A DNA stretch of 64,000 nt from a virus. Its lineage: Duplodnaviria > Caudoviricetes. Numbering within the stretch: position 1 is the stretch's first letter; every line of letters starts with the position of its first letter. A program made the translations under genes and the position numbers. This document shows, piece after piece, positions 1,668 to 59,411 of the stretch. The stretch lies in the IMG/VR virus record IMGVR_UViG_3300005611_000006; one strand, written 5' to 3'. The notes beneath the pieces were generated by a model. That model saw only the letters and a list, made by a program, of their open reading frames with translations. It was not told where the DNA came from and did no database searches.

Positions 1668-2275
1668 TGATTTTAACTGATGATGTCATTTGGAAACATT
1701 GTCATTTAAAAGATCTTTGGATATTTGATAAATTAATTTTAAGTCAGGTTTTGGGATATCGCTGTGGACCAGTTGGTCTTCAGGTCCCAGAGCCTGATTT
1801 TTATTGTATTAGACCAATTACAAATGTACTTGGTATGGGAAGATATGCAAGAATTGAATGGATTCAGGATAGCACTGATCACTATCATCCAGGAGAGTTT
1901 TGGTGTGAGGTTTTTGAAGGAGAACATCTCAGTGTTGATTATTATCAGAAGCAATCTGTATTGGTCGTGAGAGGGGAAAGAGAAAAGAATGCTCCATTGT
2001 ATCAGTGGAAGAAATGGGAGAGGTTAGAGAAGCAGGTAGAGTTCCCTCAGGTCCTAAATGAATTATATGATGATTATGAATGGATTAATTGTGAGTTTAT
2101 TGGAGATAAACTAATTGAGGTTCATTTTCGTAGTAATCCAGATTTTGTTTACAATAATTCTGTTGCAATTCCTATTTGGGATGGCGCAGAAAATGAAATT
2201 AAAAATGAAGAAAATTATAAGTATATTACCTCTTCAGATTATCACCGAATAGGTTTCCTTATTGACGAAAAATAA
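1667..2275 (+). CDS. Hypothetical protein, ATP-grasp-like
   Basis: Start at ATG 1667 overlapping the upstream TAA (TAATG); motifs IRP..N..GMG, CEVFEGEHLSVDY and NCEF...LIEVHFR resemble ATP-grasp elements. Confidence 0.6.
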   Translation: MILTDDVIWKHCHLKDLWIFDKLILSQVLGYRCGPVGLQVPEPDFYCIRPITNVLGMGRYARIEWIQDSTDHYHPGEFWCEVFEGEHLSVDYYQKQSVLVVRGEREKNAPLYQWKKWERLEKQVEFPQVLNELYDDYEWINCEFIGDKLIEVHFRSNPDFVYNNSVAIPIWDGAENEIKNEENYKYITSSDYHRIGFLIDEK

Positions 2276-2301
2276 ATATCATTTAGTTACATTTTCAGCA
2301 A

Positions 2302-2472
2302 ATGAAAACAGAAAAAATTAATATATACTGTCAGGGGAGAAAGATTTATACAGGTCTTTCTGAAGAATCAATGTTCGAAGTTCTTGATGAATTAACTGAA
2401 GAATTTTATGCAACAGGGGTTCCCCTTCCTGAGGATATTATGGTAGAATATACAAGTACCACGGAAACATAA
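2302..2472 (+). CDS. Small acidic hypothetical protein (56 aa)
   Basis: Translated by hand: MKTEKINIYCQGRKIYTGLSEESMFEVLDELTEEFYATGVPLPEDIMVEYTSTTET; ATAAATA late-promoter motif just upstream (about 2272-2278). Confidence 0.75.
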   Translation: MKTEKINIYCQGRKIYTGLSEESMFEVLDELTEEFYATGVPLPEDIMVEYTSTTET

Positions 2473-11200: not shown

Positions 11201-13441
11201 TATTTAAATCCTCCTAAAGTAAAATTATTTAATACAGAAACAAATTCTTTAGAAGATTCCTTTAGTGCATTCTGTAATTTAAAAGGAAATACTGTTGACG
11301 AAATATTAATTATTAATCCTGGTAATGGTTTACATAGATTTTCTAATAAATTAGTATTTACAGATAATTCTAATGGAGTCAAGATTTTAAGTGCAAGTTC
11401 TGTACAAGATTCTCCTTCACTGTATACAGTTTCATTAACTCTTGAGACACCATTATCTGGATTTACAACTTCAAATCCTCCACCATTTGATCTCAATGAT
11501 GATATATTTGTTGAAAATCTTGGCACTAACTATGATTCATCAGATTATTCTTATAATACATTTAAAGTAGTAGGAATAGTTACTAATTATAGTAGTGAGA
11601 ATGAAACCATATTAAGATATCAAGTCTCTAAGTCTCCTGGTAGTGTGCTTTCATATGATAATGCTTATGTAATTAATTCAAATGATCTTCCGCAAGCAAA
11701 TGTTTCATTGATTCAAAGTTCATTTATTGCTGGAGAAGATATTAATGGTGAAAAGTCCATATCAAACAAAATAGATAATTATACAAATAATATTGTAAAA
11801 GTTGAAGATTTAGAATCAATAAAAGTTGGAGATGATATTAAAGGAAACTTAAGTTTTTCAGAGGGAAACGTAGTTAAGATTGATAAATTTAGTTCAAAGT
11901 TCAATGTTAGTAATAGTATTTCTAGTAAATTCGGATGGAAAGAATTTAAAGGAAAACTTTCTGTAAATGATCAAAATTTATCTGATAACGATTATTATCA
12001 AAATTTTTCATATTCTTTACGTAGTAAAATACAAATTTCTGATTGGAATTCTCAAGTTTCTGATTTAAATCATATTGCAGGATTTAAAAAGTTTAGCGAT
12101 CTACAAGTAGAATCTAAATCGACTATATCTGGACAACAATCTAATTCGTCTTCTATAGTTAATGTATCAATAAATTCTTTTGGAGATATAAACACAAAAA
12201 ATAATTTTGATCTAGTTTTAGAGGACGTTGATGAAAATAATAATGAATATTCTGAATTATTAAAATTCAGGTCTAGGAAACTTTCTGACTATTTACTTTC
12301 AGAAGAAAATAGAGTTTTGTCTATAGATAATGTATCAACAAATTTTAATAATCAAACTTCCTTTGCAGAAATTATAGTAGACACTTTACCAACAATTAAT
12401 ACTGGAGGAATAGTTGCAAAATATTTTGTTCTTATAGAATCTACAACTTCACTTTTTACAGACTTTGAACTTCCTTTACTTGCAGAAGTTTTTATAACTA
12501 AACAAAGTGATTCTATTAATGGAGGAGTAAGTTTAATTACATACTCTTACTTTGAAGACATTCCATTAGGAACATTTACTTCTGCATTGAATCCTCAAAA
12601 TAAAAATGAAATTTTATTGAAGTTTGCACCAATAAATGTTAATAATATAATATCAGCTAGAACTATAACAGACTATATTCCTTTAGATGTATCTACAGAA
12701 AGTAACAGTTATGGAAATGTTAATAGTGTAGCAATTACTAGCACGTTTCCTGCAGAAAGTTCTCCAACACAAAAAGAAATTATACTATCTCCTTTATCTG
12801 AGTGCCAGTCTGGTTCAATATATGTTGGTATTGCTTCAGTTGCTTCTCAAATTGAAGAATTTAAAGAAATTGGATTTTTATATAATGGGACAAATGTTTT
12901 ATTCACTACTTATTCTGAAAGTGAATTAAATAATTTAGGAGAGGTTGGAATTTCTACAAGTGGAAGTAATTTAGTTATTACATATGATGGAATTGCAAAT
13001 ACAGGTGTTACTGTGTATGTAGATTCAACCTTACTTGTAGAAACTCAAACTTCTCCAAATCAGATTCAAAGTGATTATGGACTATTAAATAGTTCAAGGT
13101 CACAATTTACTGGAAGTTCCCCAGTAGGACTAACAACAATTACTTCAGATTATGGAGTTTCAAATTTTATAGTTGAAATTGAAAAAACTGTTGGTGTTAC
13201 ATTAACAAGATCTGTTGCTCAAATAAATGCAGTTCATTATGATATAAACTTCTTAGAGAATAAATATTTGGCAAATATTACTTATAGTGCTCTCGGTAAT
13301 TTCAATGACATAGATTTTGATTTAACTTTCGATCCAGGTTCAAACTCTTATACTCTTTCTTATGTTCCGTCTGAAGTTGGAACTTTTGATATAAAATTAT
13401 CTCAAAAGAGTATATTAAGATCCACAAATCCATTATTGTAA
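5261..13441 (+). CDS. gp7: Giant baseplate wedge protein (gp7-like) with a YHYH-type domain
   Basis: N-terminal QIPEFI...FLKQYY and KDFYQSKGTDESF..LFKVLFG; position between gp6 and gp8; HSPIIGWAYDG.PIYGPY...LDKHNGRYC; DNDYYQNFSYS motif. Confidence 0.75.
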   Translation: MNQDKKVIKISDVVENQIPEFIFTENPNFAEFLKQYYISQEFQGGTVDIAENLIEYKNFDSFDSSNLITKTTLSSDIDIFEETIPVVSTKGWPEKYGLLKINDEIITYTGITTNSFTGCVRGFSAIESIVKENDPEYLVFSQSESDFHKDGDSVDNLSNLFLIEFFKKTKSQFIPGFEDLNFDSRIDIPNFISKAKDFYQSKGTDESFEILFKVLFGEKVEVIKPKDFLFAPSDDKWIVVENFVCDLVEGDPLKLNGQTLYQDKNISGSVLESNGSIYSVSSLNIGENIFYKVSIFSGYSNNLNPKGSIFGEFKTTPKTYVVSEVSSNSTTIPVVSTVGFDSSGKLIIDGSEITYTDKTSTEFLNCSGIQSDINSSTKVYADNFVYSYEDGNINSVVKLRIINTVSNIDSSGLVLINEGDKINIKNLGSTEKSIFTESLNYNVPSIIFAGKVFPAETNIGSLDEGISINGFVKTKYPHYLKEGDAVEVYNSSRGEKITNSIVSNVNSERSFTISDAQNLKNYKNNQIKIRRIPFRSNSSMYPEINGIFAVNIQNSYEDSNCYYVESNGLPDNNIKPYKKEYSFSCDNDTLTIISDSNNGSEHYYENGDVVNISNIVGVSTILSTNIDYYIKKLNVDEVKIARSLLDVIQNNFITPDIEQVTLTSKSLYGKQFTSSKSFKKILKNIDYTKTEKTTKPGSIGILVNGVEIQNYKSSDKVYFGNLENIKVLNSGSGYDLLNPPTFEINDGTDTTSSIIPQMEGIVESIIVSDPGYDYVETPIVTIKNGSNEEIKTEVRMKLISRELEFNAANSDIVATLDIEEKFIFTEPHRLIVGDGVIYDSSSGTKIGIGTQVSDGTLLDDSVYFVSSIGAGTSFRLAPTYNDAINETNLIKLRTLGTGIQKFTSVKKVKVIDSVNITDSNPVLKYKKVVAREDDINKYDNIINIKNHGFLSGDEISYSYSSGSGLDGLLVSQYYYIVKIDDNSFKLSSTKNLNNIVDFDLIDSSVHIFEYSPIRVDILGSLTISGISTIGTSAVLTPVVRGSINDIKIEESDPEYNSNYTAYLNYNLNPTIRVVNGKGAFLQPVITNGKITNVIILSQGENYFNSLEIDVIGVGNGAKLSPVVVNGRITSVNIINKGIGYDSNTTIKIRTIGSNFSAIGEIKSYTLNEVDRYPNSILKRGIIVNDVYHPDQNIYGVYKLTDTLESLLNLNDANRHSPIIGWAYDGCPIYGPYAYENPDGTGNIIEMTSSYKKSKVGDIPLGLIEDYSYIQNRGSLDKHNGRYCITPEYPNGVYAYFATSKFPYFIGDTYKFTPLPENFDFHHTQNLNYNQLDIVKNTLPYYVEDELNYYDYFDYRPNPEKEEAFVLKSLSGDIDSIDVVDSGEGYSIGSKLIFDNTGTGGYGASAEITELSGVGISSIESTTKTIQNITFISDNNTIIGVATTAHNFKDEYFIKISGITSTTFISLNGVKKINVDEIVTNLEDALDSESVTGITTSIKIKDSITIFDIDSKIRISNENATVIGLDYLNNRINILRESSSPSYAVDEYVYLNQNKFYFEENKSLDLPEANVSYYFDSNLVSIGIDTSVGAGNTITSYPLGVGVSQTKYIRTAGIWMPNHRFKSGESVSYSNDSAFLNVQTSLSSQFLSDFSNLYIVDFGNDVVGLTTIQNEFSGLLYYTSAGTGRLHKLKTNRNIISGQAIFNETIVSTASSHGLDVGDKVKLNVTSGLTTNYTVTYSSGNAKLRIDGDNNPEINVYRNQKVVFDTSASSLNRTHFKLYTDSDYKNEYIGTGNSGVEVVVGVNSVTLNIQDTTLSTLYYNIESTSKKVFDDETVFNHNRINVKQSLYNITSGIVTNTNESFTVNLPYSPEENNYSSSDSNKISYTVRESDVLGPISEVKVTSKGVDYKKIPSIKSVEGDGKDAVLIPITKNIGRVSEIGPLAVNICPSDKTLVPTSNLYSVLYLKNNYKVSTVDLTFSGKNYLNPPKVKLFNTETNSLEDSFSAFCNLKGNTVDEILIINPGNGLHRFSNKLVFTDNSNGVKILSASSVQDSPSLYTVSLTLETPLSGFTTSNPPPFDLNDDIFVENLGTNYDSSDYSYNTFKVVGIVTNYSSENETILRYQVSKSPGSVLSYDNAYVINSNDLPQANVSLIQSSFIAGEDINGEKSISNKIDNYTNNIVKVEDLESIKVGDDIKGNLSFSEGNVVKIDKFSSKFNVSNSISSKFGWKEFKGKLSVNDQNLSDNDYYQNFSYSLRSKIQISDWNSQVSDLNHIAGFKKFSDLQVESKSTISGQQSNSSSIVNVSINSFGDINTKNNFDLVLEDVDENNNEYSELLKFRSRKLSDYLLSEENRVLSIDNVSTNFNNQTSFAEIIVDTLPTINTGGIVAKYFVLIESTTSLFTDFELPLLAEVFITKQSDSINGGVSLITYSYFEDIPLGTFTSALNPQNKNEILLKFAPINVNNIISARTITDYIPLDVSTESNSYGNVNSVAITSTFPAESSPTQKEIILSPLSECQSGSIYVGIASVASQIEEFKEIGFLYNGTNVLFTTYSESELNNLGEVGISTSGSNLVITYDGIANTGVTVYVDSTLLVETQTSPNQIQSDYGLLNSSRSQFTGSSPVGLTTITSDYGVSNFIVEIEKTVGVTLTRSVAQINAVHYDINFLENKYLANITYSALGNFNDIDFDLTFDPGSNSYTLSYVPSEVGTFDIKLSQKSILRSTNPLL

Positions 13442-17737: not shown

Positions 17738-20700
17738 ATGTCACAAAGCACAAATTTAAATGTCAATCCATATTATGACGATTTTGATTCCCAAAAAAAC
17801 TACTATAAGGTACTCTTTAAACCTGGAGTAACTGTTCAAGCAAGAGAACTTACAACTTTACAGTCGATTTTACAAAATCAGATTGAAAAATTTGGTAGTA
17901 GTTTCTATTCAAATGGTGGAATAGTAATTCCAGGAAACTTTGCATATGACGGAACTTTTACTTGTGTTGAAGTCGAATCTACGTACAAAGGAGTTGATGT
18001 AGAGACATATTTCAATTCTTTAGTTGGAAAAGTTGTAGAGGGTAAAAATACAGGAATTACTGCAAAAGTAGAAAGTGTTTTATCAAAAATTAATTCTATT
18101 AGAAACGTAACAACTTTATATATCAAGTATCAAAAATCTTCATCAGACGACTTTTCTACAGAAATTTTTGAAAATGGTGAGGAATTGTCAGTACAATCTG
18201 ATGTAGTTTCAGGAAGTACTTTAATAGAATCTGGACAAGATGTATTTAAAGTAATTTCTCCAGTTGATAGAAGTGCTTGTTCTGTTGGTTCTGCTGCAAA
18301 AATTGAATCTGGTGTTTATTTTATAAGAGGTTATTTTGTAGATATTGAATCTGATTTAATTTTATTGGATCAATATACAAATACTCCATCATATAGAGTT
18401 GGTTTAAATGTAAAAGAAAGTATTATAGATGCTAATGATGATTTATCATTGTATGATAATGCTCAAGGATTTTCAAATTATGCTGCGCCAGGAGCAGATA
18501 GGTTTAAAATATCTTTATCTTTATCTAAGAAAGAAATTGATGATTTTATTGACAATGATTTTATTGAACTCTTTAGAGTTGAAAATGGAATAGTCAAAAA
18601 AATTAAACAAAATGATCAATACTCCTGGATAAATGATATATTAGCAAGAAGAACTTTTGATGAATCGGGAAATTATTATGTTTCTCCTTTTGGAGTAGAA
18701 TCCTTAGAGTCTTTAAATGACAGATTGGGTAATCAAGGATTATATTTGAGTAGTCAAAAAACTTCTGATGGATCTACCCCATCAGATGATTTAGCTGTTC
18801 TTAAAATATCTCCAGGAAAAGCTTATGTTAAAGGATATGAAGTGCCGACTTCTACTGAAGTTTTAGATTTACCAAAACCAAGAACTACAAAAGAAGTAGA
18901 ATCATCCTCTAGCAATTTTTATGCTGCGAATTTAATTAGAGTTAATAATGTTCAAGATTTACCTAAGATAGGTTTAACCACTGATTCTTCTATATCTCTC
19001 TATGATTCTAGATTGGTAAATGGATCTGTTTCAGCAGGAACAACAATTGGACTAGCTAAAATATATGATTTTGAATCTCATAATAATTCATATGAAGATG
19101 ATTCTAGTCAATCTAACTTATACTTATTTGACATTCAGACATATACAAACTTAACTTTAAGTGGTTCAGTAACTGCAGGTGTTGGAGAGTACGTTCAAGG
19201 GCAGTACAGCAATGCCTCAGGATATGTTAAATCTGGATCTGGTGGCGATTTAACTCTATATCAAGTATCTGGTGAATTTATTGTAGATGAGCCTTTAATT
19301 ATTTCTGGCATCTCAACAACTACTAATATTAATTCTATTCAAGACTACTCGATACAAGATATTAAATCTGTTGGTGTTGACAATTTTGCTTCAGATACTT
19401 TACTTTCTAAAGAAATATCGGTTGATGGACCTTTCGACTTTGTATCAAGTGCAGGAGTTTCGACAATAACTGCATTTGATGGAAGTGCATTTGCTACTGG
19501 ATTTAAAGTTAATGATATTATTAAATACTCTAGATCTGGAGTAGATCTTCCAAGTTTTTCTAAAGTTACTAATATTAATAACTCTTTAACTAGCGTTACT
19601 GTTACAGGAGTTTCTACTGTTACAAATGTTTGTGATGGTGGTATTGGATCGACAACAACTTTACAAAATATCAAAATAGTTAGACCAGAAGTATTAAACT
19701 TTGAAGATTCTTCACTATATTCGAGATTAAATAATAGTAATATTTCAGAAATTAGTTTCTTAAATTCCAGTATTTTCACTAAAAAATATTATGATGGTCA
19801 AACTATTTCCGGCAATTCGATAACATTACCATCTCTACTCAATACAGATTTTGTTTATGCTGCTTTTGATGAGGAAAGATATAGTTTAGTTGATGATTCT
19901 GGTAATGGCATAGATTTATCTTCAGCAACGTTTAATCTTACAAATGGTGGAAAAGATGCAGAATTTACAGGATTGAGTGTAGCAACTGCATCTGCAGCAA
20001 AGGTGATAACCACTCAAATTAAATCAAATATTTCGCAGAAATTTAAAAAACTACAAAGAGTACAATCAGTTGTAGTAAACAGGACAAAATATAATCCCTC
20101 TAGAAATGGTGGATTATCTAACTCTACAGTTTATGGAACTAGAGTTGAAGATTCCGAAATAAGTTTAAATTATGCAGATATAGTTGAAGTTCACGGAGTA
20201 TATCAATCATCATCTACATCAAATCCAGAGTTACCTTCTATTACATTTTCTGGCACTTCTGCTGGAAGTTTGAAATTTGGAGAGGTATTTATTGGACAAA
20301 CTTCTGGTGCTGTTGCAATTTATGCAGAAAGAATAACTAGTAGCAGAATTTCTTTTGTGTATAAGTCTAGTAATAAGTTTATTGAAAATGAAGATATCAA
20401 ATTCCAAGAGTCTACAAGAACTGCTACAATATTAACTGTAATTGAAGGAGAAGAAAATATACTATCAGATTTTATTCTAGATAATGGTCAAAGAAAGCAA
20501 TTCTATGATTTTGGTAGATTAGTAAGAAAAACAGCATCAAAAGATCCTTCTGCAAGATTAAAAATTATTTTTGACTACTTTAAGTTTGAGTCTACAGATT
20601 CTGGAGATTTAATTGGAGCAAACAGTTATCAAGAATTTTTATCTAAAAACAAAATTCCAGTTTTCAATGGAATAAAAAATTCTGATGCTATTGATATTAG

Positions 20701-23700
20701 ACCAAGAGTATCTGATTATAGCACTTCATCAAATATAAGTCCATTTGAATATGGATCTAGATCTTTTGATAATGGTTCAAATAATTCATCTCAAGTACTT
20801 TCATCTAATGAATCAATAATTTTTGATTATAGTTTCTATCTTCCCAGAACTGATAAATTAACTTTAGATAGAAATGGTAATTTTAATTTAGTGCTTGGAG
20901 AACCTAGTGAAACTCCAGTTAAACCACAAATAACAGAAGAAGTATTAGATGTCGCAACAATTGTAAGTTCACCTTACGTTTATGATGCTACAAAAGATAT
21001 TAATATAATTTTAACTGATAATAAGAGATATACTATGTCTGATTTAAGAGACATAGAAAAAAGAGTTAATAATTTAGAATATTATAGTACTCTATCTCTT
21101 CTTGAAGTTGAAACTAAAAATCTTTTAGTTCAAGATTCTCAAGGTTTTAATAGATTTAAGTCTGGATTCTTTGTAGATGATTTCCAAAATTATAATACTT
21201 CAAATACTGATTCATCCATTTTTAGGTCAAATATTAGTAATGGATCTTTAAAATCTGAAGTAAATAAAAATCAAATTACACTCAAGTTAGATTCTAATAA
21301 TAATACTCAAATAACCGGAGATACATTAACATTAAAATACTCTGAAAATGAGTATCAAAAGCAACCATTTGCAAGTAGGATTGTAAATGTAAATCCATTT
21401 AACATTGTAACTTGGACTGGAAAACTTCAATTAAATCCATCTTCTGATAGTTGGACTGTAGAAGTTTCTTCAGTTCAAGAGATTGCTGATGTTGATAGAA
21501 GAGGTCAAGTAGATCGTACTAGATCTTCTACTTCTATTCCATACATTAGATCTAGAAATATAGAGTTTATTGGAACTAGATTAAAGCCATCTACACAGTT
21601 TAACTTAATATTTGACTCTAGAAATTTATCAACAAATTCAACAGGAAATACTTATGCATTTCCTAAGTTATTACAGATATCAAATGTAGTTGGAACATTC
21701 TCAATCGGTGAGACTGTTCGAGGATTTGATAATAACGGAAATAGAATTTCATTTAGAATTTGCACTCCAAACCATAAAACTGGAACATTCAATAATCCAG
21801 ATTCAACTTATAATGTTAATCCATATGAATCTAATGTTAAAATTCCTTCATCTTATGGTCCTCAGTCTACAGTATTGAATGTTGATACTTCATCACTTCA
21901 AATTTCAAATGAATCTTCTTATTTTGGTAATGTTACTTCTGGTATGAAATTGTACGGATCTTCAAGTGGAGCAACAGCAACAGTATCAGAATTAAAATTA
22001 GTTTCAGATGATAATGGTACTCTAATAGGTAGTATTTTTATTCCTGATCCAGACTCAAGTTCATTGAAGTTTAAAACAGGCAATACTTCTGTAAAATTAA
22101 CTACCTCTACTGCTGCTTTAGGAGTTCCAGGAGAGTTTACAAGTTCTGCAGAAACTACTTTTAATACTTCGGGAAGTAGAGTAGAGATCAGAACTGTTAC
22201 TTATTACGATCCTTTAGCGCAGTCATTTATTGTAGAAGAATCAGAGGGTATTGTTCCAACTTCTGTTGACGTTTTCTTTGCAACTAAAGATTCTACATTA
22301 CCAGTAACTCTACAGATTAGAGAAGTTTTAAATGGTCTTCCAGGTGGTCCTGATAAAATTGTTGGAGGTTTGGAAAAAATAATAAACCCAAATAAAGTAA
22401 AGGTTAGTAATAATGCTTCAGTTGCAACAAACTTTAAGTTTGATAATTTAACTAGATTAGAGGGAGGTAAAGAATATGCAATCGTTTTAATTTCAGATTC
22501 AAGTGATTATAACGTTTGGATATCTAGAGTAGGAGAAGTTGAAATTTCTACACAATCATTCACCGAAGCTCAAAAAGTTATAATTAATAAGCAACCATCT
22601 TTAGGTTCTCTATTCAAATCTCAAAACGGAACAACCTGGGTTCCAACTCCAGAAGATGATCTTAAATTTACAATTAAAAATGCTAAGTTTAGTAATAAAG
22701 CAGGAACTTCAATTTTCTTTAATAGTGAAATTCCTACAAGATCAAATGAAAATAAACTTTCTTCAAATCCAATTTTTTCAATATCATCATCTGCTTCAGA
22801 ATATAATAGTGGAAGACATATTTTAGTATTTCATCCAAATCATGGAATGAATTCATTAACTAATAAAGTTGACATTGAAGGAATTATTTCAGACGTTCTT
22901 CCTGAGAAATTAACTGTTGCATATGGAATTACAGATTCTGGTCCAATATCTGTAGCAAGTGATACAATATTTGAAGAATTTGAAGGATCTACAGTTAATA
23001 ACTCTACAGCTTATGTTGTAATTAATGGTGAAATTATAAAATATGAAAATACTGGAAGTGATCAATTAGTTGATATAACTAGAGCACAATTTGGAACAAC
23101 GAAGTTAGATCATCCAGTAAATTCTTTAGTTTATAAGTATGAATTTAATAATGTATCATTGGAAAGAATTAACAAAACTCACGATATAATTGATCCTACA
23201 ATAGATTCTTATTATATCCAAGTTGGATCTGGAAGTTTGTTTAGTGAAAGTAAGTTTGGTGGTGGTGATAAAGTTTATGCATCAAAAAATAAGCAATTTA
23301 GTAAGTTAGAATTTGATAATAACTTTATCACTAGATTTGAATCTACTTCTGTTGATTCTTCAGTTAGAACTGTAAGTTCTACTAGTATAGATGGTAGTGA
23401 AGTATCATTCAAGGATAAGGGATATGAATCTGTCGGGATCAATAGTATTAATCAGTTTACAGATCCGAGAATGGTTTGTTCAAGAATAAATGAAACTACA
23501 TCATTAAATACTAATCAGTTTAAGGATAATAAATCATTTACTTTACAGTTAACTTTATCGACTAATAATCAAGATTTATCACCTATACTAAATTTAAATA
23601 ATTCAAATTTAATTGTTGAAAATAATAGAATAAATCAACCAATTGGTATAAATTCTTATTCAGTAGACAATAGAATTAACTCAAACGTTGATGATCCAAA

Positions 23701-24091
23701 TGCTTTAATTTATGTTTCAAACAGAGTTGATTTATCTCAAAGTGCATCATCGATAAAAGTTTTACTTTCCGCTTATAGATCACAATACTCTGATATTAGA
23801 GCTCTTTATAAAATTTACAGAGATGACAATCCAGATGAAAATCAAGTTTGGCAATTATTCCCAGGATATTTGAATCTTGATGTAAATAATAAGATTATTA
23901 ACACTTCAAATAATGATGGAAGATCTGATACATCAGTACCTTCTAGTTTAGAAAATGAATACCGTGAATATTCATTTACAATTGACGAGTTGCCACAGTT
24001 TACATCATTTGCTATAAAAATTGTTGGTACAAGCTCTAATCAAGCATATACACCAATTATTGAAGATTTAAGAGTAATTGCTTTAAAATGA
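17738..24091 (+). CDS. Large virion structural protein, VrlC/DUF4815-like
   Basis: NLNVNPYYDDFD...VLFKPG..VQARELTTLQSILQ, APGADR, LARRTFDESGNY, YYDPLAQSF and GSLFKSQNG.TW. Confidence 0.85.
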   Translation: MSQSTNLNVNPYYDDFDSQKNYYKVLFKPGVTVQARELTTLQSILQNQIEKFGSSFYSNGGIVIPGNFAYDGTFTCVEVESTYKGVDVETYFNSLVGKVVEGKNTGITAKVESVLSKINSIRNVTTLYIKYQKSSSDDFSTEIFENGEELSVQSDVVSGSTLIESGQDVFKVISPVDRSACSVGSAAKIESGVYFIRGYFVDIESDLILLDQYTNTPSYRVGLNVKESIIDANDDLSLYDNAQGFSNYAAPGADRFKISLSLSKKEIDDFIDNDFIELFRVENGIVKKIKQNDQYSWINDILARRTFDESGNYYVSPFGVESLESLNDRLGNQGLYLSSQKTSDGSTPSDDLAVLKISPGKAYVKGYEVPTSTEVLDLPKPRTTKEVESSSSNFYAANLIRVNNVQDLPKIGLTTDSSISLYDSRLVNGSVSAGTTIGLAKIYDFESHNNSYEDDSSQSNLYLFDIQTYTNLTLSGSVTAGVGEYVQGQYSNASGYVKSGSGGDLTLYQVSGEFIVDEPLIISGISTTTNINSIQDYSIQDIKSVGVDNFASDTLLSKEISVDGPFDFVSSAGVSTITAFDGSAFATGFKVNDIIKYSRSGVDLPSFSKVTNINNSLTSVTVTGVSTVTNVCDGGIGSTTTLQNIKIVRPEVLNFEDSSLYSRLNNSNISEISFLNSSIFTKKYYDGQTISGNSITLPSLLNTDFVYAAFDEERYSLVDDSGNGIDLSSATFNLTNGGKDAEFTGLSVATASAAKVITTQIKSNISQKFKKLQRVQSVVVNRTKYNPSRNGGLSNSTVYGTRVEDSEISLNYADIVEVHGVYQSSSTSNPELPSITFSGTSAGSLKFGEVFIGQTSGAVAIYAERITSSRISFVYKSSNKFIENEDIKFQESTRTATILTVIEGEENILSDFILDNGQRKQFYDFGRLVRKTASKDPSARLKIIFDYFKFESTDSGDLIGANSYQEFLSKNKIPVFNGIKNSDAIDIRPRVSDYSTSSNISPFEYGSRSFDNGSNNSSQVLSSNESIIFDYSFYLPRTDKLTLDRNGNFNLVLGEPSETPVKPQITEEVLDVATIVSSPYVYDATKDINIILTDNKRYTMSDLRDIEKRVNNLEYYSTLSLLEVETKNLLVQDSQGFNRFKSGFFVDDFQNYNTSNTDSSIFRSNISNGSLKSEVNKNQITLKLDSNNNTQITGDTLTLKYSENEYQKQPFASRIVNVNPFNIVTWTGKLQLNPSSDSWTVEVSSVQEIADVDRRGQVDRTRSSTSIPYIRSRNIEFIGTRLKPSTQFNLIFDSRNLSTNSTGNTYAFPKLLQISNVVGTFSIGETVRGFDNNGNRISFRICTPNHKTGTFNNPDSTYNVNPYESNVKIPSSYGPQSTVLNVDTSSLQISNESSYFGNVTSGMKLYGSSSGATATVSELKLVSDDNGTLIGSIFIPDPDSSSLKFKTGNTSVKLTTSTAALGVPGEFTSSAETTFNTSGSRVEIRTVTYYDPLAQSFIVEESEGIVPTSVDVFFATKDSTLPVTLQIREVLNGLPGGPDKIVGGLEKIINPNKVKVSNNASVATNFKFDNLTRLEGGKEYAIVLISDSSDYNVWISRVGEVEISTQSFTEAQKVIINKQPSLGSLFKSQNGTTWVPTPEDDLKFTIKNAKFSNKAGTSIFFNSEIPTRSNENKLSSNPIFSISSSASEYNSGRHILVFHPNHGMNSLTNKVDIEGIISDVLPEKLTVAYGITDSGPISVASDTIFEEFEGSTVNNSTAYVVINGEIIKYENTGSDQLVDITRAQFGTTKLDHPVNSLVYKYEFNNVSLERINKTHDIIDPTIDSYYIQVGSGSLFSESKFGGGDKVYASKNKQFSKLEFDNNFITRFESTSVDSSVRTVSSTSIDGSEVSFKDKGYESVGINSINQFTDPRMVCSRINETTSLNTNQFKDNKSFTLQLTLSTNNQDLSPILNLNNSNLIVENNRINQPIGINSYSVDNRINSNVDDPNALIYVSNRVDLSQSASSIKVLLSAYRSQYSDIRALYKIYRDDNPDENQVWQLFPGYLNLDVNNKIINTSNNDGRSDTSVPSSLENEYREYSFTIDELPQFTSFAIKIVGTSSNQAYTPIIEDLRVIALK

Positions 24092-49054: not shown

Positions 49055-49999
49055 ATGAGAAATGATTTTTTGTGGGTGGAAAAGTATTCCCCCAAAAAAA
49101 TTGAAGATTGTATTCTTCCCGAAAGCACTAAAAAGACATTTCAAGATTTTGTAGATAAGGGAGAGATCTCAAATCTTTTACTTGCTGGTCCTCCCGGAAT
49201 TGGAAAAACTACTGTAGCTAAAGCACTTTGTAATGAACTAGGAGCAGATTATTATGTCATCAATGGATCCGATGAAGGTAGATTTTTGGACACGGTTAGA
49301 AACCAAGCAAAGAACTTTGCTTCGACCGTATCAATTCAAGCAACTTCTAAACACAAAGTCATCATCATTGACGAGGCAGATAACACGGGGAACGACGTAC
49401 AACTCCTCCTACGGGCAAATATTGAGGCATTTTATAACAATTGCAGATTCATCTTCACCTGCAATTACAAAAACAAAATCATTGAACCTCTTCACAGCAG
49501 ATGTGCAGTTGTCGAGTTTGGCATCAGATCAAAAGACAAACCAAAGATCGCAGCAAAGTTCTTTGAGAGGCTCAAAGAGATCTTGGATAAAGAAAAAGTT
49601 GAAGCAGACGATAAAGTTCTTGTTCAATTAATCAATAAGCATTTTCCTGACTGGAGAAGAGTACTCAATGAATGTCAGAGGTACTCTGTTTCAGGAAAAA
49701 TTGATTCAGCAATTCTTGCAACTTTTTCTGATGTAAAGATTGATGACATTATCAAACATCTTAAAACTAAAAACTTTACAGATGTACGTAAATGGGTAAT
49801 AGCACACCTAGATAATGATTCTGGATCATTACTAAGGATGGTTTATGACGGTCTATACCAACACCTAGATGGTCCTAGCATTGCTGCTTGTGTACTTATT
49901 GTATCAAAGTATCAATATCAATCTGCTTTCGTTGCAGACCAAGAGATCAACCTTCTTGCTGCTTTAACGGAAATTATGTGTGAGTGTAATTTCAAATGA
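49055..49999 (+). CDS. gp44: Clamp loader large subunit gp44
   Basis: LWVEKY.P, GPPGIGKTT, IIDEAD, PLHSRC and FPDWRR. Confidence 0.97.
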   Translation: MRNDFLWVEKYSPKKIEDCILPESTKKTFQDFVDKGEISNLLLAGPPGIGKTTVAKALCNELGADYYVINGSDEGRFLDTVRNQAKNFASTVSIQATSKHKVIIIDEADNTGNDVQLLLRANIEAFYNNCRFIFTCNYKNKIIEPLHSRCAVVEFGIRSKDKPKIAAKFFERLKEILDKEKVEADDKVLVQLINKHFPDWRRVLNECQRYSVSGKIDSAILATFSDVKIDDIIKHLKTKNFTDVRKWVIAHLDNDSGSLLRMVYDGLYQHLDGPSIAACVLIVSKYQYQSAFVADQEINLLAALTEIMCECNFK

Positions 50000-53070: not shown

Positions 53071-53099
53071 TTGCAAAATATTCTATGTGGTGCTATACT
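53071..53099 (+). promoter_or_regulatory. sigma70-type promoter for the gp43 operon
   Basis: TTGCAA-17nt-TATACT with TGn. Confidence 0.65.
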
Positions 53100-53127
53100 A
53101 CATAGAGAGAAATACTATGAGGTAATT

Positions 53128-53412
53128 ATGGCAATTAAAATTGTAATGCTAAAATCTTTGGAAGATGTTATCGCTGATGTCAAAGAAATGGTGTCTGGAG
53201 ATAGCGTAATTGGATATACTCTTACAAATCCTTTCACACTAACTTTCAGGGAAGAAGCACAGGTTAAGTTTTATCCTTATGCTCCACTTTCTACTGATAA
53301 AATTATTCCAATTCCATCTGATTGGGTAGTTTCTATTGTAGAACCTATGGAAGAAATTAAAAACTCATATTTGGAGAATATCGATGGAAAATCTGAAAGT
53401 ACTGATAGCTAA
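53128..53412 (+). CDS. Conserved hypothetical protein
   Basis: MAIKIVMLKS.EDVIADVKEM; GAGG RBS supports the ATG at 53128. Confidence 0.8.
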   Translation: MAIKIVMLKSLEDVIADVKEMVSGDSVIGYTLTNPFTLTFREEAQVKFYPYAPLSTDKIIPIPSDWVVSIVEPMEEIKNSYLENIDGKSESTDS

Positions 53413-53647
53413 GCCAAACTTGGTTTTGCTTACTCAAGTTGAAGAAGTAGAATCAGAGTTGGGAGAACCTGATTGTAAGTTAATAAATCCTTTTGAACTT
53501 TTTAAAAATTCTGAAGGTAAATACGATCTAAGAAAGTGGCCAGATTTTACAGATCAGAGAGAGATGAAAATTCACTCAGACTCTATCTTTACAATTTTGG
53601 ATCCAACTCCTTGGCAATTTGAAATGTATCTGAAATTATCTAAATGA
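53384..53647 (+). CDS. Conserved hypothetical protein
   Basis: EEV.SELGEPDCKLINP motif; GGAG RBS. Confidence 0.8.
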   Translation: MENLKVLIAKPNLVLLTQVEEVESELGEPDCKLINPFELFKNSEGKYDLRKWPDFTDQREMKIHSDSIFTILDPTPWQFEMYLKLSK

Positions 53648-56139
53648 AGTTTTACACAAATATTGTTCTTGTAGGGAATGAAATTCTTTCCCGAGGATTT
53701 GATAATGGGAAATCTTTTCAAAATAGAGAAGAATTTTATCCAACTTTATATGTACAATCTAGTAATAAGACAAAATATAAAACACTTGATGGACAATATG
53801 TTGAAGAGGTAAAACCAGGAACAATTAAAGAAACTCGTAACTTTATTGAAAGATATAAAGGTATTGATAACTTTAAATTATTTGGTAATACAAGATATGT
53901 AAATCAATACATTTCTGAAAAATATCCAGAAGATCATATAGTATTTGATATTACTAAAATCAAACTAATTACTATTGATATTGAGGTTGCTTCAGAAAAT
54001 GGATTTCCTGATGTAAGAAGTTGTAGTGAAGAAATACTTACAATTTCTATTCAGAATTATGCTACAAAAAAAGTTATTACTTGGGGTGTTAAACCTTTTG
54101 AAAGTAAAGACCCAAATGTAAAGTATATTGAATGTAAAGATGAATTTGATCTTTTAGACAATTTTATTGCATACTGGGAATATGATACACCGGAAGTAAT
54201 TACTGGTTGGAATTGTGAGTTTTATGATATTCCATACATTTATGGAAGACTTAAAAAGGTATTGGATACTAAAACTGCAAAGAAGATTTCTCCTTGGGGA
54301 ATCGTAACTGAAGATGAAGTTGTAATTAATGGCAGACAAAATGATCGTTGTCAGATTGCAGGAGTTACAGTTCTAGATTATCTTGATCTTTATAAGAAAT
54401 TTACTTATACAAATCAAGAGTCTTATCGACTGGATCATATTGCTTTTGTTGAACTTGGTGCAAATAAACTAGATCACTCTGAGTATGAAACCTTCAAAGA
54501 TTTTTATACTAAAGACTGGAATAAATTTGTAGAATACAATATCATTGACGTTAAACTTGTTGACCGTCTGGAAGACAAGATGAAACTTATTGAGTTAGCC
54601 ATTACTATGGCATATGACTCGAAAAGTAATTACAATGATGTATTCTACCAAGTTAGAATGTGGGACTCAATTATCTACAACTATCTTAAAAAGAGAGATA
54701 TTGTAATTCCATTTAAGACTGATAATAAGAAAGATTCTAAGTATGCTGGTGCATATGTAAAAGAACCAGTTCCAGGGATGTATGACTATGTTGTAAGTTT
54801 TGACTTGAACAGTCTATACCCACACTTGATTATGCAGTATAATATCTCTCCAGAAACTCTATTGAATGATAGATATCCAGGAGTATCTGTTGATAGACTT
54901 TTAGAAGGAAAAGTTGAAATACCTGATAATCATCCATTTGCAGTTTGCGCTAATGGAGCACAATACAGGAAAGATGTTAGAGGATTTCTTCCAGAGTTGA
55001 TGGATAAGATGTATAGTGATCGAGTCATCTATAAAAAGAAGATGATCGAAGCTAAGAAAAAATATGAAAAAAATCCATCTATAGAATTAGAGAAAGAAAT
55101 TGCTAGATGTAATAATATTCAGATGGCAAAAAAGATTTCTCTAAACTCTGCTTATGGTGCGGTTGGAAATGAATATTTTAGATATTTCCGAATCGAGAAT
55201 GCAGAAGCAATTACTCTCTCTGGACAACTTTCAATTCGTTGGATTGAAAGTAAGATGAATTCTTATATGAATAAAGTACTTAAAACTAATAATACTGATT
55301 ATGTTATTGCTTCTGATACTGATTCTATCTATCTTAATATGGGTCCTTTTGTTGAAGCTATATTCAAAGGAAGAGAGAAAACTACTGAAAGCGTTATTTC
55401 GTTCCTTGACAAGGTCTGTAAGGTGGAACTTGAAAAATATATTGAAAGTTCTTACCAAGAATTGGCCAACTACGTAAATGCGTATGACCAGAAGATGCAA
55501 ATGAAGAGGGAGAATATTGCTGATCGTGGTATTTGGACTGCAAAGAAAAGATATATCCTCAACGTTTGGGATAGTGAAGGAGTAAAGTATTCTGAACCTA
55601 AACTTAAAATGATGGGAATTGAAGCAGTTAAATCTTCTACACCTTCTCCTTGTAGAACTAAGATTAAAGAAGCCCTTGCTATCATTATGAATCAAACTGA
55701 GGATGATCTTATTAAGTTTATCGATCAGTTCAAAGGTGAATTTTTCAATATGCCACCGGAAGATATTTCATTCCCAAGGTCTGTTAATGATATTAAAAAG
55801 TATAGAAATCCTCAAACGATTTATTCTAAGGGAACTCCAATTCATTGCAGAGGAGCTCTTTTATATAATCACTATGTTAAAAAGAAGAAAATTGAAAATA
55901 AGTATGCATTGATCGCAAATGGAGAAAAAATTAAGTTTTGCTACTTAAAGAAAGCAAATCCAATTAGAGAAAATGTTATGTCTTTTATTCAAAAATTCCC
56001 AAATGAACTTGGATTAAATAAGTATGTAGATTATGATCTTCAATTCGAAAAAAGTTTCTTGGATCCTTTAAAAACTATCATTCAAGCAATTGGTTGGAAC
56101 ATTGAAAAGACTGTAAATCTTGAATTGTTTTTCTCATGA
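53644..56139 (+). CDS. gp43: Family B DNA polymerase gp43
   Basis: Exonuclease DIEV and GWN..FYDIPY; polymerase DLNSLYP, KISLNSAYG and SDTDS. Confidence 0.98.
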   Translation: MKFYTNIVLVGNEILSRGFDNGKSFQNREEFYPTLYVQSSNKTKYKTLDGQYVEEVKPGTIKETRNFIERYKGIDNFKLFGNTRYVNQYISEKYPEDHIVFDITKIKLITIDIEVASENGFPDVRSCSEEILTISIQNYATKKVITWGVKPFESKDPNVKYIECKDEFDLLDNFIAYWEYDTPEVITGWNCEFYDIPYIYGRLKKVLDTKTAKKISPWGIVTEDEVVINGRQNDRCQIAGVTVLDYLDLYKKFTYTNQESYRLDHIAFVELGANKLDHSEYETFKDFYTKDWNKFVEYNIIDVKLVDRLEDKMKLIELAITMAYDSKSNYNDVFYQVRMWDSIIYNYLKKRDIVIPFKTDNKKDSKYAGAYVKEPVPGMYDYVVSFDLNSLYPHLIMQYNISPETLLNDRYPGVSVDRLLEGKVEIPDNHPFAVCANGAQYRKDVRGFLPELMDKMYSDRVIYKKKMIEAKKKYEKNPSIELEKEIARCNNIQMAKKISLNSAYGAVGNEYFRYFRIENAEAITLSGQLSIRWIESKMNSYMNKVLKTNNTDYVIASDTDSIYLNMGPFVEAIFKGREKTTESVISFLDKVCKVELEKYIESSYQELANYVNAYDQKMQMKRENIADRGIWTAKKRYILNVWDSEGVKYSEPKLKMMGIEAVKSSTPSPCRTKIKEALAIIMNQTEDDLIKFIDQFKGEFFNMPPEDISFPRSVNDIKKYRNPQTIYSKGTPIHCRGALLYNHYVKKKKIENKYALIANGEKIKFCYLKKANPIRENVMSFIQKFPNELGLNKYVDYDLQFEKSFLDPLKTIIQAIGWNIEKTVNLELFFS

Positions 56140-56480: not shown

Positions 56481-57488
56481 ATGGATTTTTTAAAAGATAT
56501 TGTAAAAGAAATTGGTGATGATTACACCAAACTAGCTGCAGATATTGATGAAACTGAAACATATGTTGACACGGGTTCTTACATTTTTAATGGACTCGTT
56601 TCAGGTAGTATATTTGGTGGTGTCTCTGGCAATAAGATTACTGCCATTGCTGGTGAGTCTAGTACTGGAAAAACTTTTTTTAGCCTCGCAGTGGTTAAGA
56701 ATTTTCTGGACACTAATCCTGATGGATATTGTTTGTATTTTGACACTGAGGCAGCTATCACTAAATCACTTGTAGAAAGTCGTGGGGTTCCTACAGATCG
56801 TTTAGTAGTTGTAAATGTTGTTACTGTTGAAGAGTTCCGTAGTAAAGCTCTTAAAGCTGTAGATATATACTTAAAAAAACCTGAAGATGAACGCAAACCT
56901 TGTATGTTTGTGTTAGACTCTTTAGGAATGCTCTCCACAGAAAAAGAGATTACTGATGCACTGAATGATAAACAAGTTCGTGATATGACAAAATCACAAC
57001 TTATTAAAGGTGCTTTTAGAATGTTGACTTTGAAGTTGGGACAGGCAAAAATTCCAATGATCGTAACCAATCATACCTACGATGTTATCGGTTCTTATGT
57101 TCCTACTAAAGAAATGGGTGGTGGTAGTGGACTTAAGTATGCTGCCTCTACGATCATTTATCTCAGCAAGAAAAAAGAAAAGGATGGAACAGAAGTCATT
57201 GGAAATATTATCAAGGCAAAGACTGCTAAGTCGCGTTTAAGTAAAGAAAATAAGGACGTTGAAATTAGATTATTTTATGATGAACGTGGTTTAGATCGAT
57301 ATTACGGATTGCTTGAATTGGGAGAACTTGGTGGAATTTGGAAGAACGTAGCAGGACGTTATGAAATAGATGGTAAAAAAGTTTATGCAAAACAAATCTA
57401 TAAAGAACCCGAAAAATATTTCACTCCAGAAGTAATGCAAGCTTTAGATGAAATTGCGAGAGGAGAATTTTCATATGGTAAATCTTGA
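56481..57488 (+). CDS. uvsX: RecA-like recombinase UvsX
   Basis: AGESSTGKTF, YFDTE, VLDSLGML and MGGGSGLKYAAS. Confidence 0.96.
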   Translation: MDFLKDIVKEIGDDYTKLAADIDETETYVDTGSYIFNGLVSGSIFGGVSGNKITAIAGESSTGKTFFSLAVVKNFLDTNPDGYCLYFDTEAAITKSLVESRGVPTDRLVVVNVVTVEEFRSKALKAVDIYLKKPEDERKPCMFVLDSLGMLSTEKEITDALNDKQVRDMTKSQLIKGAFRMLTLKLGQAKIPMIVTNHTYDVIGSYVPTKEMGGGSGLKYAASTIIYLSKKKEKDGTEVIGNIIKAKTAKSRLSKENKDVEIRLFYDERGLDRYYGLLELGELGGIWKNVAGRYEIDGKKVYAKQIYKEPEKYFTPEVMQALDEIARGEFSYGKS

Positions 57489-58032: not shown

Positions 58033-59411
58033 TGGAAAACATTGAAACTACTATTATCAGAAATCTTCTTTTCAACAATGACTATTGTAGAAAAGTTCTT
58101 CCATTTATTAACAAAGAATATTTTGAAAATTTTCATGAGAAAGTAGTTTTTGAAGAAATTTCTAAATTTATGGTTTCATATGAAAATCTTGCAACAAAAG
58201 AAGTATTGTTAATTGAATCTGAAAAAAGAACAGATATCACAGAAGACACATATAAAGTTGTTTGTGAATATGTATCTTCTCTTGATAATTCTCCTGCAGA
58301 CTTAGAATGGCTCTATGATGTAACTGAAAAGTGGTGTAGAGATCGTGCAATTTATATTGCTTTGATGGAATCTATTAAGATTGCTGATGGTCAGGATGAG
58401 AAGAAAAACAGAGATGCAATTCCAAGCATTCTTCAAGAAGCTTTATCTGTAAGTTTTGATAACAATATTGGTCACGACTATTTACAAAATTATGAAGAAA
58501 GATATGAATACTATCATAAGAAAGAGGAGAAACTTCCGTTTGATCTTGAATATTTTAACAAAATTACCAAAGGTGGGTTGCCTCCTAAAACTCTTAATAT
58601 CGCGCTTGCTGGTACAGGTGTCGGCAAATCTCTATTCATGTGCCACGTTGCTAGCTCCGTCTTGCTCCAAGGACGGAACGTTCTCTATATTACAATGGAG
58701 ATGGCAGAAGAGAAAATTGCTGAACGAATTGACGCAAATCTTTTGAACGTACCGATTCAACAACTAACTGATTTACCAAAAGCAATGTTTGAGAATAGGG
58801 TAAATAAGATTAGCAAGAAAACACAGGGAACTTTTATTATTAAAGAATATCCGACCGCTTCTGCTCATACAGGGCACTTCAAGTCACTTCTTAATGAACT
58901 TGCACTTAAGAAATCTTTTAAACCTGATATAATTTTTATCGACTATTTGAATATCTGTGCTTCTAGTAGATATAAGTCAAACTTTTCAGTAAACTCATAT
59001 TCTTATGTAAAGGCGATTGCTGAAGAACTTCGTGGACTTGCTGTTGAATATAATGTTCCGATTGTGAGTGCAACTCAAACAACTCGTAGTGGTTATGGTA
59101 ACTCTGATGTAGAATTGACAGATACTTCAGAATCTTTCGGTCTTCCTGCAACTGCTGATCTTATGTTTGCACTTATTGCTACAGAAGAACTTGAGAATCT
59201 TGGTCAGATTATGGTCAAGCAACTTAAAAATCGTTATAATGATCCAACAATGAATAAAAGATTTATTGTTGGTATTGATCGTGCGAAAATGAGATTGTAC
59301 GATTGTGAACAATCCGCACAAGAAGATATACTTGACTCTGGTAAAGATGAAGAGTATAATCCTGAAGAGGATCAAAAACAAAACAAATTTTCTGGTTTTA
59401 AATTCACATGA
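58029..59411 (+). CDS. gp41: Replicative helicase gp41
   Basis: AGTGVGKS, IDYLNI, SATQTTR, SESFGLPATAD and KQLKNRY. Confidence 0.97.
   Translation: MMENIETTIIRNLLFNNDYCRKVLPFINKEYFENFHEKVVFEEISKFMVSYENLATKEVLLIESEKRTDITEDTYKVVCEYVSSLDNSPADLEWLYDVTEKWCRDRAIYIALMESIKIADGQDEKKNRDAIPSILQEALSVSFDNNIGHDYLQNYEERYEYYHKKEEKLPFDLEYFNKITKGGLPPKTLNIALAGTGVGKSLFMCHVASSVLLQGRNVLYITMEMAEEKIAERIDANLLNVPIQQLTDLPKAMFENRVNKISKKTQGTFIIKEYPTASAHTGHFKSLLNELALKKSFKPDIIFIDYLNICASSRYKSNFSVNSYSYVKAIAEELRGLAVEYNVPIVSATQTTRSGYGNSDVELTDTSESFGLPATADLMFALIATEELENLGQIMVKQLKNRYNDPTMNKRFIVGIDRAKMRLYDCEQSAQEDILDSGKDEEYNPEEDQKQNKFSGFKFT

Follow-up and report, generated by a model that had tools for sequence, protein, structure and literature searches.

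The stretch of DNA analysed here, called the window below, is a 64,000-nucleotide sequence from the IMG/VR virus record IMGVR_UViG_3300005611_000006 (Duplodnaviria; Caudoviricetes). It carries g43, the gene of a family-B replicative DNA polymerase, whose product gave Pfam matches to DNA_pol_B (7.8e-31) and DNA_pol_B_exo1 (8.6e-26). Nested wholly within g43, in the +1 frame, lies an open reading frame (ORF) of 58 codons, which we consider probably to be a gene in its own right that would encode a small membrane protein. A preliminary description of the window had proposed such a gene, and the sequence, coordinates and translation that it gave for the ORF were reproduced exactly. The ATG spans the Tyr and Val codons that open polymerase motif C, in agreement with the earlier placement of the start at YVIASDTDS. 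The features that bear on the ORF are as follows.

53644..56139, + strand: g43, family-B replicative DNA polymerase, 831 amino acids (ORF list, Pfam)
55301..55477, + strand: probable overprinted +1-frame ORF, 58 codons plus TAA, nested wholly within g43 (stop-free in orthologues, synonymous trough, +1-specific constraint)
55301..55303, + strand: ATG start, formed by tAT Gtt of Tyr-Val in polymerase motif C (ATG in 82 of 92 orthologues)
55304..55360, + strand: predicted transmembrane helix, residues 2–20 (AlphaFold2, hydropathy, excess of T at third positions)
55367..55459, + strand: predicted cationic amphipathic helix, residues 23–53, with conserved ER.LL, SLIRS and WNL motifs (AlphaFold2, charge, hydrophobic moment)
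55475..55477, + strand: TAA stop, formed by gTA Aat of polymerase Val-Asn (stop-making Val codons in orthologues)
55288..55470, + strand: trough of synonymous diversity in g43, polymerase codons about 548–608 (observed/expected synonymous diversity)
55348..55446, + strand: mosaic cassette, polymerase codons 568–600, corresponding to +1 residues about 17–49 (deeply diverged allelic types)

The length of 58 amino acids is not by itself beyond chance, and an excess emerges only from the comparison of orthologues. Eight nested +1 ORFs that start with ATG and have at least 58 amino acids are present in the approximately 60 kb of coding sequence of the window, and many of them are rich in Leu and Ile. 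One of 69 amino acids (55703..55912, + strand) is located in g43 itself. Further long nested +1 ORFs were noted at 49254..49631 (125 amino acids, within the gene 49055..49999) and at 58492..58746 (84 amino acids, within gp41). The codon composition of the overlap is unusual in both of its halves. Over the first 20 polymerase codons of the overlap, T occupies 85% of the third positions as compared with 46% genome-wide. In the second half, where the preliminary description had pointed to atypical polymerase codons, codon typicality lies at the 1.5th percentile of all 30-codon windows in the genes of the window. The GC content at third positions is 0.45 there and 0.17 genome-wide, and the codons agc, tcg, gtc, gtg and gcc each account for 3–6% of their own synonymous sets.

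Conservation of and selection on the +1 frame

The ORF was examined in three collections of polymerase genes. The first consisted of 80 IMG/VR cyanomyovirus polymerases with 68–79% amino acid identity to the g43 product, and the whole gene was also taken from 11 named Kyanoviridae; comparisons were made on a first set of 81 and on a set of 92 sequences. A second, independent sample comprised 80 IMG/VR loci seeded from an S-RIM2-type polymerase. The expected frequency of open frames was obtained by drawing the codons of each sequence from its own usage.

Translation of the +1 frame of g43 orthologues, the check that had been suggested for the ORF, showed that the frame is stop-free across the same 58 codons in 93% of the 81 and in 93% of the 92 orthologues, as compared with 4.3% under the codon-usage null. 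The next-best 58-codon window in g43 was open in 30%, and the observed values for other g43 windows were about equal to or below those expected. Among representatives sharing less than 75% identity, all 13 were open, and the best other window reached 0.38. The second sample gave a similar picture: counted from the same start, 50 or more codons were open in 73 of 80 loci. For the 58 loci of this sample with a full polymerase gene, it was open in 23 of 23 sequences of allelic type 1 and in 20 of 22 of type 2, against an expectation of 3–5% and values of 7–9% for other windows. The 69-amino acid ORF in the same gene, which served as an internal negative control, was open in about 20% of orthologues. 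An AT-rich genome such as this one (31% GC in the window) with T-rich third positions may produce open and hydrophobic-looking +1 frames by composition alone, and the eight nested ORFs, many of them Leu/Ile-rich, together with the unconserved ORF 55703..55912, are what such an artefact would look like. However, no other g43 window in the same sequences behaves like the 58-codon region, and an origin by chance, which is scarcely credible, is effectively refuted.

The end of the frame is conserved as a stop and not as a fixed codon. Among the 87 orthologues with Val at the terminating position, 43 use GTA and 39 use GTG, which produce TAA and TGA, respectively, in the +1 frame. These stop-making codons thus account for 82 of 87 (94%), while 57% is expected for Val before a codon starting with A. 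When the stop at Val-Asn is absent, the frame closes nine codons further on, at a stop found in 81 of 81 sequences of the first set.

Stops inside the frame are strongly avoided. At the Leu, Ile and Val sites able to make a +1 stop, we observed 11 stop-making codons against 265 expected. Codons that make a stop in the +1 frame only numbered 8 against 172 expected (a 20-fold depletion), and those that make a stop only in the antisense frame numbered 55 against 122 (an approximately 2-fold depletion). Even among the non-consensus synonymous codons that are present, only 11 make a +1 stop, as compared with 60.8 expected (z = −9.3, about 5-fold). The frame thus enjoys a protection that goes further than conservation of the bases. 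The avoidance begins at the first codons after the ATG, with 5 stop-makers against 52 expected at site 553 and 0 against 45 at site 563. Several polymerase residues in the overlap are encoded by codons that are rarely used elsewhere. At Ser 582, 49 of 53 sequences have AGC, which makes up 3% of the Ser codons elsewhere, and at Ser 585, 53 of 62 have TCG (5% elsewhere), at a site where a change to TCT would leave the antisense frame unaltered. For Gln 604, CAA was seen in 66 sequences and CAG in 2, while the ratio elsewhere is 60:40. In the +1 peptide, three Trp codons are conserved across orthologues, and 13 of the 58 columns are invariant and another 13 near-invariant.

Pairwise synonymous diversity, expressed as observed over expected, falls to 0.28–0.52 over polymerase codons about 548–608, while it is about 0.8 (0.79) gene-wide. 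The trough coincides with the ORF and ends at the +1 stop. The 59-codon window over this region ranks seventh from the bottom among 773, and those with the lowest values overlap with it. The polymerase itself is no more conserved here, with an amino acid identity of 0.77 in the region and 0.75 in the rest of the gene. The ratio of synonymous divergence in the region to that in the rest of the gene is 0.58–1.20 for sequences with a broken ORF and 0.52 ± 0.10 for those with an intact one.

To separate the effects on the two proteins, nucleotide differences were classed as nonsynonymous (N) or synonymous (S), first for the polymerase and then for the +1 frame. The ratio of NN to NS diversity in the region is 0.45 (bootstrap confidence interval (CI) 0.31–0.66), which is below the control minimum of 0.53 and well below the control median of 0.82. 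The diversity at NS sites in the region is unreduced (0.24 vs. 0.20). An analogous ratio for the +2 frame gave no signal of selection (1.55 vs. a control median of 1.29). Because the wobble positions of the codon-aligned antisense frame are the first positions of the polymerase codons, and because this antisense frame is also unusually open, the sites were further classed in three frames, in the order polymerase, +1 and antisense. The ratios of diversity in the region to that in the rest of the gene are as follows.

SSS: 0.91
NSS: 1.42
NSN: 0.84 (CI 0.42–1.36)
SNS: 0.47 (CI 0.25–0.81)
SNN: 0.55 (CI 0.44–0.67)
NNS: 0.55 (CI 0.25–0.98)
NNN: 0.65

The classes that are silent in the +1 frame are unconstrained, and those that alter it are constrained, even where they are silent in the antisense frame. 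The type-2 allele group, taken as a replicate, gave an SN-site diversity of 0.49, below the control minimum of 0.67. Divergence of the +1 residues at the rate of neutral synonymous change, which would have spoken against the ORF, was not seen; instead, synonymous variation is depleted specifically where the +1 peptide would change.

Another possibility is that the selected gene is the codon-aligned antisense (−0) frame and that the openness of the +1 frame is its by-product. Over polymerase codons 557–627, about 84% of sequences lack stops in the −0 frame, as compared with 11–25% expected, the largest such excess in the gene, and the window contains an ORF of 154 amino acids there (55231..55695, − strand). 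This ORF, an internal negative control, is open in full in only 1% of orthologues, an antisense ATG is missing from 77 of the 92 sequences, and the start and end of the antisense frame are scattered in position. The 2-fold depletion of antisense-only stops matches the general loss of diversity, in contrast to the 20-fold depletion of +1-only stops, and sites at which a change affects the +1 frame alone are constrained (SNS, above). In addition, the synonymous trough ends at the +1 stop and not at codon 627. Both the 154-amino acid ORF and the codon-aligned antisense frame were therefore rejected as the selected frame on the basis of stops, ATG and site classes, and selection on the antisense strand appears most unlikely.

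Distribution, allelic cassettes and assessment of the ORF

The ORF is intact in 14 of the 15 isolates sampled, 11 with the canonical and 3 with a variant form. The canonical form of 58 amino acids was found in S-PM2, P-SSM2, P-SSM4, S-CREM1, S-SRM01, P-HM1, P-SSM7, Syn1, P-RSM1, S-CAM1 and P-TIM40, the polymerases of which are only 56–70% identical to that of the window. S-P4, S-RIM2 and ACG-2014a have an open variant of 54 codons with a different tail. In ACG-2014f, also a member of the Kyanoviridae, the ORF is broken by stops. Five outgroups from the Straboviridae and others (Aeromonas, Vibrio, Sinorhizobium and RB69-like phages) likewise have stops. A tblastn search with the peptide matched g43 in 134 cyanophage and marine-virus records. 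The ORF is annotated in none of the 11 isolate records in which the whole g43 was viewed, and a search of the full-text literature yielded neither a report of an ORF inside cyanophage g43 nor a study in which cyanophage infection was followed by ribosome profiling.

Protein databases contain hardly any trace of the peptide. Among 5.8 billion predicted proteins, a word-index search retrieved a single match, a frameshift chimera, and a profile search of 1.84 billion representative proteins returned only g43-internal sequences (chimeras and two stray ORF calls). The public protein matches P0003–P0018 are polymerase/+1 chimeras from indel-bearing contigs and a few weak unrelated matches; stand-alone calls of the ORF are P0010 (58 amino acids) and P0013 (57 amino acids). 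One of the chimeras carries the source name 'DNA-binding phage protein'. As only g43-internal sequences were retrieved, the peptide has no free-standing homologue in these databases, which fits birth by overprinting. The chimeras (P0003, P0004–P0018) might be taken to indicate a programmed frameshift from the polymerase frame, which would yield a shortened polymerase that lacks the thumb domain and ends in a basic tail. However, their junctions are scattered along the region as expected for sequencing indels and do not fall on one shift site. Avoidance of +1 stops begins right at the first codons after the ATG, and stops located 1–14 codons upstream close the frame in most sequences. A frameshift product is accordingly very improbable.

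The central part of the ORF is subject to a further kind of variation. Over polymerase codons 568–600, the identity drops to 34–41% between polymerases that are 80–90% identical elsewhere (L006/L002, L069/L060 and L071/L045 in our set). The sequences with the type-2 allele are scattered over the polymerase tree, and the +1 ORF stays open in all three sequence types of this segment. The block of about 32 codons looks like a recombining cassette, and its position coincides with the core of the hidden ORF.

These data also bear on the idea that a nucleotide-level element, such as a structured RNA, a binding site for a protein or small RNA, or a promoter or origin, conserves the bases here and that the open +1 frame is merely ancestral. 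Such an element would suit the strong conservation of third positions over about 180 nt and the observation that the tolerated +1 replacements are not especially conservative. In contrast, the constraint tracks the effect on the +1 frame (0.84–1.42 for the +1-silent and 0.47–0.65 for the +1-altering classes), +1 stop-makers are depleted about 5-fold among synonymous variants (z = −9.3), and the terminator alternates between TAA and TGA but remains a stop. The two allelic cassettes are very different in sequence, and the frame is open in both. Direct searches for an element were also unproductive: Rfam gave only a chance-level match to FTX_2 (18 bits vs. a gathering score of 48, E = 1), the fold of the single sequence had a z-score of −0.15, RNAalifold gave −8 kcal/mol with 0 of 28 pairs compensatory, and a scan for promoters and terminators showed no excess. 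We consider an explanation by a nucleotide-level element improbable.

Alternatively, it may be the act of translation that matters and not the peptide, for example through ribosome traffic or the stability of the g43 mRNA. The location of the ORF in an essential, tightly regulated gene would be compatible with such a role, as would the non-conservative nature of the tolerated replacements. A purely regulatory ORF would need a start and a stop only, however, and here 13 invariant and 13 near-invariant columns of 58 are retained, including the three Trp residues and those held by rare codons. A role confined to translation is therefore distinctly improbable.

Several observations weigh against the view that the ORF is a gene. 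The preliminary description had named conservation of the ATG, the stop and the motif EERKL.KAL.RSL as a check. The stop and the motif are indeed kept, but the ATG is kept only at the frequency that codon usage predicts: it is present in 82 of 92 orthologues (89%), and 88% is expected for Tyr before a codon starting with G. Since TAT is the usual Tyr codon in this context anyway, the conserved ATG is not evidence in itself. In the 92-sequence set, all of the open-frame sequences with ACG at the start site have an in-frame ATG 3–4 codons upstream, although such ATGs are common anyway, and one locus of the second sample (L134) has ACG at the start site without an upstream ATG. No Shine-Dalgarno-like motif is found upstream of the ORF in the window, and only 42% of orthologues have GGAG or GAGG 5–17 nt upstream of the start; this frequency is nevertheless high in comparison with 5% gene-wide and lies in the top 2.5% of positions. 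The ORF appears to be dispensable in some lineages, as the six broken copies represent at least five independent losses at the tips of the polymerase tree (FastTree). In particular, the closest relative of the window (L001; IMGVR_UViG_3300027974_000387, 2158..2334; about 78% polymerase identity) has three stops in the ORF, and the gene would therefore have been lost recently in a sister lineage. The replacements tolerated in the +1 peptide are not more conservative than expected, with a mean BLOSUM62 score of −0.68 against −0.53 (the controls deviate by 0.01 ± 0.05). The constraint is thus one of near-invariance at most sites combined with free change at a few, as exemplified by +1 position 5, which accepts Leu, Gln, Arg and Pro. 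Finally, the −0 antisense frame is also unusually open over the ORF region, so that part of the signal is shared with it.

Taken together, the +1 frame is kept open and constrained across a phage family, and it is therefore very probably a real, unannotated gene. As judged from the orthologue comparison, the frame, its stop and most of its residues are shown to be held by purifying selection across most genera of the Kyanoviridae, with occasional recent losses. The proposal of a real gene in the preliminary description is thus borne out by the open frame, the retained stop and motif and the +1-specific constraint, and we consider the 58-codon ORF with good, though not complete, confidence to be a genuine overprinted gene located wholly inside g43.

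Predicted product, genomic setting and possible functions

AlphaFold2 predictions on 30 orthologues gave a helix at residues 2–20 with a predicted local distance difference test score (pLDDT) of about 90, a break at residues 21–22 and a second helix at residues 23–53 (mean pLDDT 89). Within residues 1–22 of the 86 intact orthologues, the Kyte-Doolittle hydropathy of the best 17-residue segment averages 2.5, with a minimum of 1.9. The net charge of residues 1–18 is about 0, while that of residues 19–58 averages +8.7 (range 6–11). The cationic helix has a net charge of +9 and a hydrophobic moment of 0.71, which is reached by 2% of shuffles. The prediction of helices, the charge and the hydrophobic moment all agree with the earlier account of a hydrophobic segment followed by a basic amphipathic helix. 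That account had allowed for the hydrophobic part alone being a frame artefact. It appears to be more than that, since the frequency of T at third positions over polymerase codons 553–571 is 0.68 in the 92 sequences, beyond every control window (maximum 0.60) and the gene-wide value of 0.42.

The peptide is predicted to be translated by internal initiation on the g43 mRNA of the replication module. The product would be bitopic, with an uncharged N-terminal transmembrane helix (residues 2–20) that is joined through a kink at Tyr21 to a strongly cationic, amphipathic helix (residues 23–53). According to the positive-inside rule, the N-terminus would face outwards, with the basic helix lying on the cytoplasmic side of the host membrane. 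The ORF was probably born de novo in an ancestral phage of this group, through overprinting. The most speculative step is that the peptide would act as a small membrane-active effector.

Searches for relatives of known function gave little. The only Pfam match was to Vpu (PF00558) and below the threshold (E 0.04, 14.1 bits vs. a cut-off of 24), PHROGs gave only families of unknown function at E 0.06–0.1, the ESM Atlas gave only unnamed clusters at 0.90–0.92, and a Foldseek search against BFVD gave nothing below E = 8. No homology to a holin family was detected in Pfam, PHROGs or the Atlas. The peptide has no conserved Cys or lipobox, and Cys occurs at position 12 in a few orthologues only. A prediction of a two-copy complex scored 0.01; it was made without controls and speaks neither for nor against self-association. 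None of five cyanophage genomes gave a match to the T4 holin family PF11031, a result that is uninformative as the control genomes gave none either; a match to Phage_lysozyme was obtained in one of the five.

The g43 neighbourhood is the replication module of T4-like cyanomyoviruses, with the gene order of two DUF6561 genes, g43, a RecA-family gene (at the position of uvsX), a 2OG-Fe(II) oxygenase gene and a DnaB-like gene (at the position of gp41). The top nucleotide matches of the window in the phage collection are S-SRM01 and P-SSM2, with an identity of only 71–73%. The two DUF6561 paralogues directly 5′ of g43 (53071..53412 and 53384..53647) overlap each other and occupy the T4-GC176/177 positions of cyanophages. 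Within uvsX (56481..57488), the window's +1 ORF of 75 amino acids (56548..56775) is fully open in only 1 of 12 cyanophages. On the other hand, 9 of 12 have an open +1 frame over a window of 58 codons at about uvsX codons 18–76, a stretch that extends over part of the Walker A region, as compared with about 16% expected. The sample is small and the peptides are not obviously conserved, but the stretch is a lead for a second hidden ORF. Long ORFs in the window are found exclusively on the + strand, and two of them are giant (5261..13441, 2726 amino acids, and 17738..24091, 2117 amino acids).

A toxin-, holin- or exclusion-like function, as put forward in the preliminary description, or a viroporin-like one is suggested by the predicted architecture. 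The combination of a transmembrane helix with a cationic amphipathic helix lying in the plane of the membrane is also known from overprinted lysis peptides of phages. If the gene is real, a holin- or viroporin-like permeabiliser or lysis timer is the candidate that we tentatively favour. A superinfection-exclusion or host-takeover factor is a less likely but still plausible candidate, and a membrane tether for nucleic acid or the replisome acting through the basic helix seems rather doubtful; the rest falls to something else. An early role at the membrane, for instance in exclusion, or a tether would fit the placement of the ORF in the replication module. What the g43 ORF shares with holins, according to the predictions, is that its product is small, has at least one transmembrane helix and ends in a hydrophilic, highly basic C-terminus. 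Against a holin stand the lack of a match to any holin family (Pfam, PHROGs) and a location within a replication gene, from which a late timing would not be expected. The ORF is also not beside an endolysin gene: g43, in which it is nested, is flanked by the DUF6561 genes on one side and by the gene at the uvsX position on the other.

Other small proteins offer architectural parallels. The lysis protein E of phiX174, a small single-stranded DNA phage, has 91 amino acids, is overprinted in the +1 frame within gene D and inhibits MraY. It shares with the g43 ORF, as predicted here, the overprinted position, an N-terminal transmembrane helix with a basic tail and an apparent de novo origin, with no free-standing relatives. 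The g43 ORF differs in belonging to a double-stranded DNA myovirus of roughly 200 kb and in lacking any similarity to E. The viroporin-type peptides HIV-1 Vpu and influenza PB1-F2 share the design of a transmembrane or an amphipathic basic helix, and PB1-F2 is likewise a +1 overprint inside a viral polymerase gene (PB1). Both come from viruses of eukaryotes, however, and the below-threshold Pfam match to Vpu reflects a likeness of architecture and not homology. In phage lambda, the o-spanin gene Rz1 is embedded in the i-spanin gene Rz (PMC5295617). It too is a small phage gene wholly inside another, in the +1 frame and with its own start, and its product is envelope-bound. As an outer-membrane lipoprotein, Rz1 carries a lipobox Cys, and it works together with the protein encoded by its host gene, whereas the g43 ORF shows neither a conserved Cys or lipobox nor sequence similarity to it and has a replicative polymerase gene as its host. 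POLGARF, an alternative-frame ORF in human POLG, was found through synonymous constraint (PMC7059407), and is thus another hidden ORF inside a DNA polymerase gene that was recognized from the same kind of evidence. It is eukaryotic, has a CUG start and a long disordered product, and is unrelated to the g43 ORF.

Few marine viruses are as abundant or as well sequenced as the T4-like cyanophages (Kyanoviridae), for which g43 is a standard marker gene. If the ORF is real, hundreds of published genomes, including those of S-PM2, P-SSM2, P-SSM4, P-HM1 and Syn1, miss one conserved gene. It would be a clean case of a large double-stranded DNA phage in which overprinting, within the active-site region of an essential enzyme, has given rise to a gene de novo. 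It would also account for the puzzling patch of rare codons and the frozen synonymous sites in g43, which matter for g43 phylogeny and for ratios of nonsynonymous to synonymous substitution (dN/dS). A broader, speculative possibility is that the peptide is a family-wide hidden viroporin- or holin-like protein that times lysis or blocks superinfection, and that its core, present as two or three deeply diverged allelic cassettes which recombination would exchange among polymerases that are nearly identical otherwise, makes it a host- or competitor-facing module of an arms race; we regard this as unlikely, though worth stating. At the least, the ORF would provide a concrete candidate for small-membrane-protein functions, such as lysis timing and exclusion, that are not yet tied to a gene in these phages.

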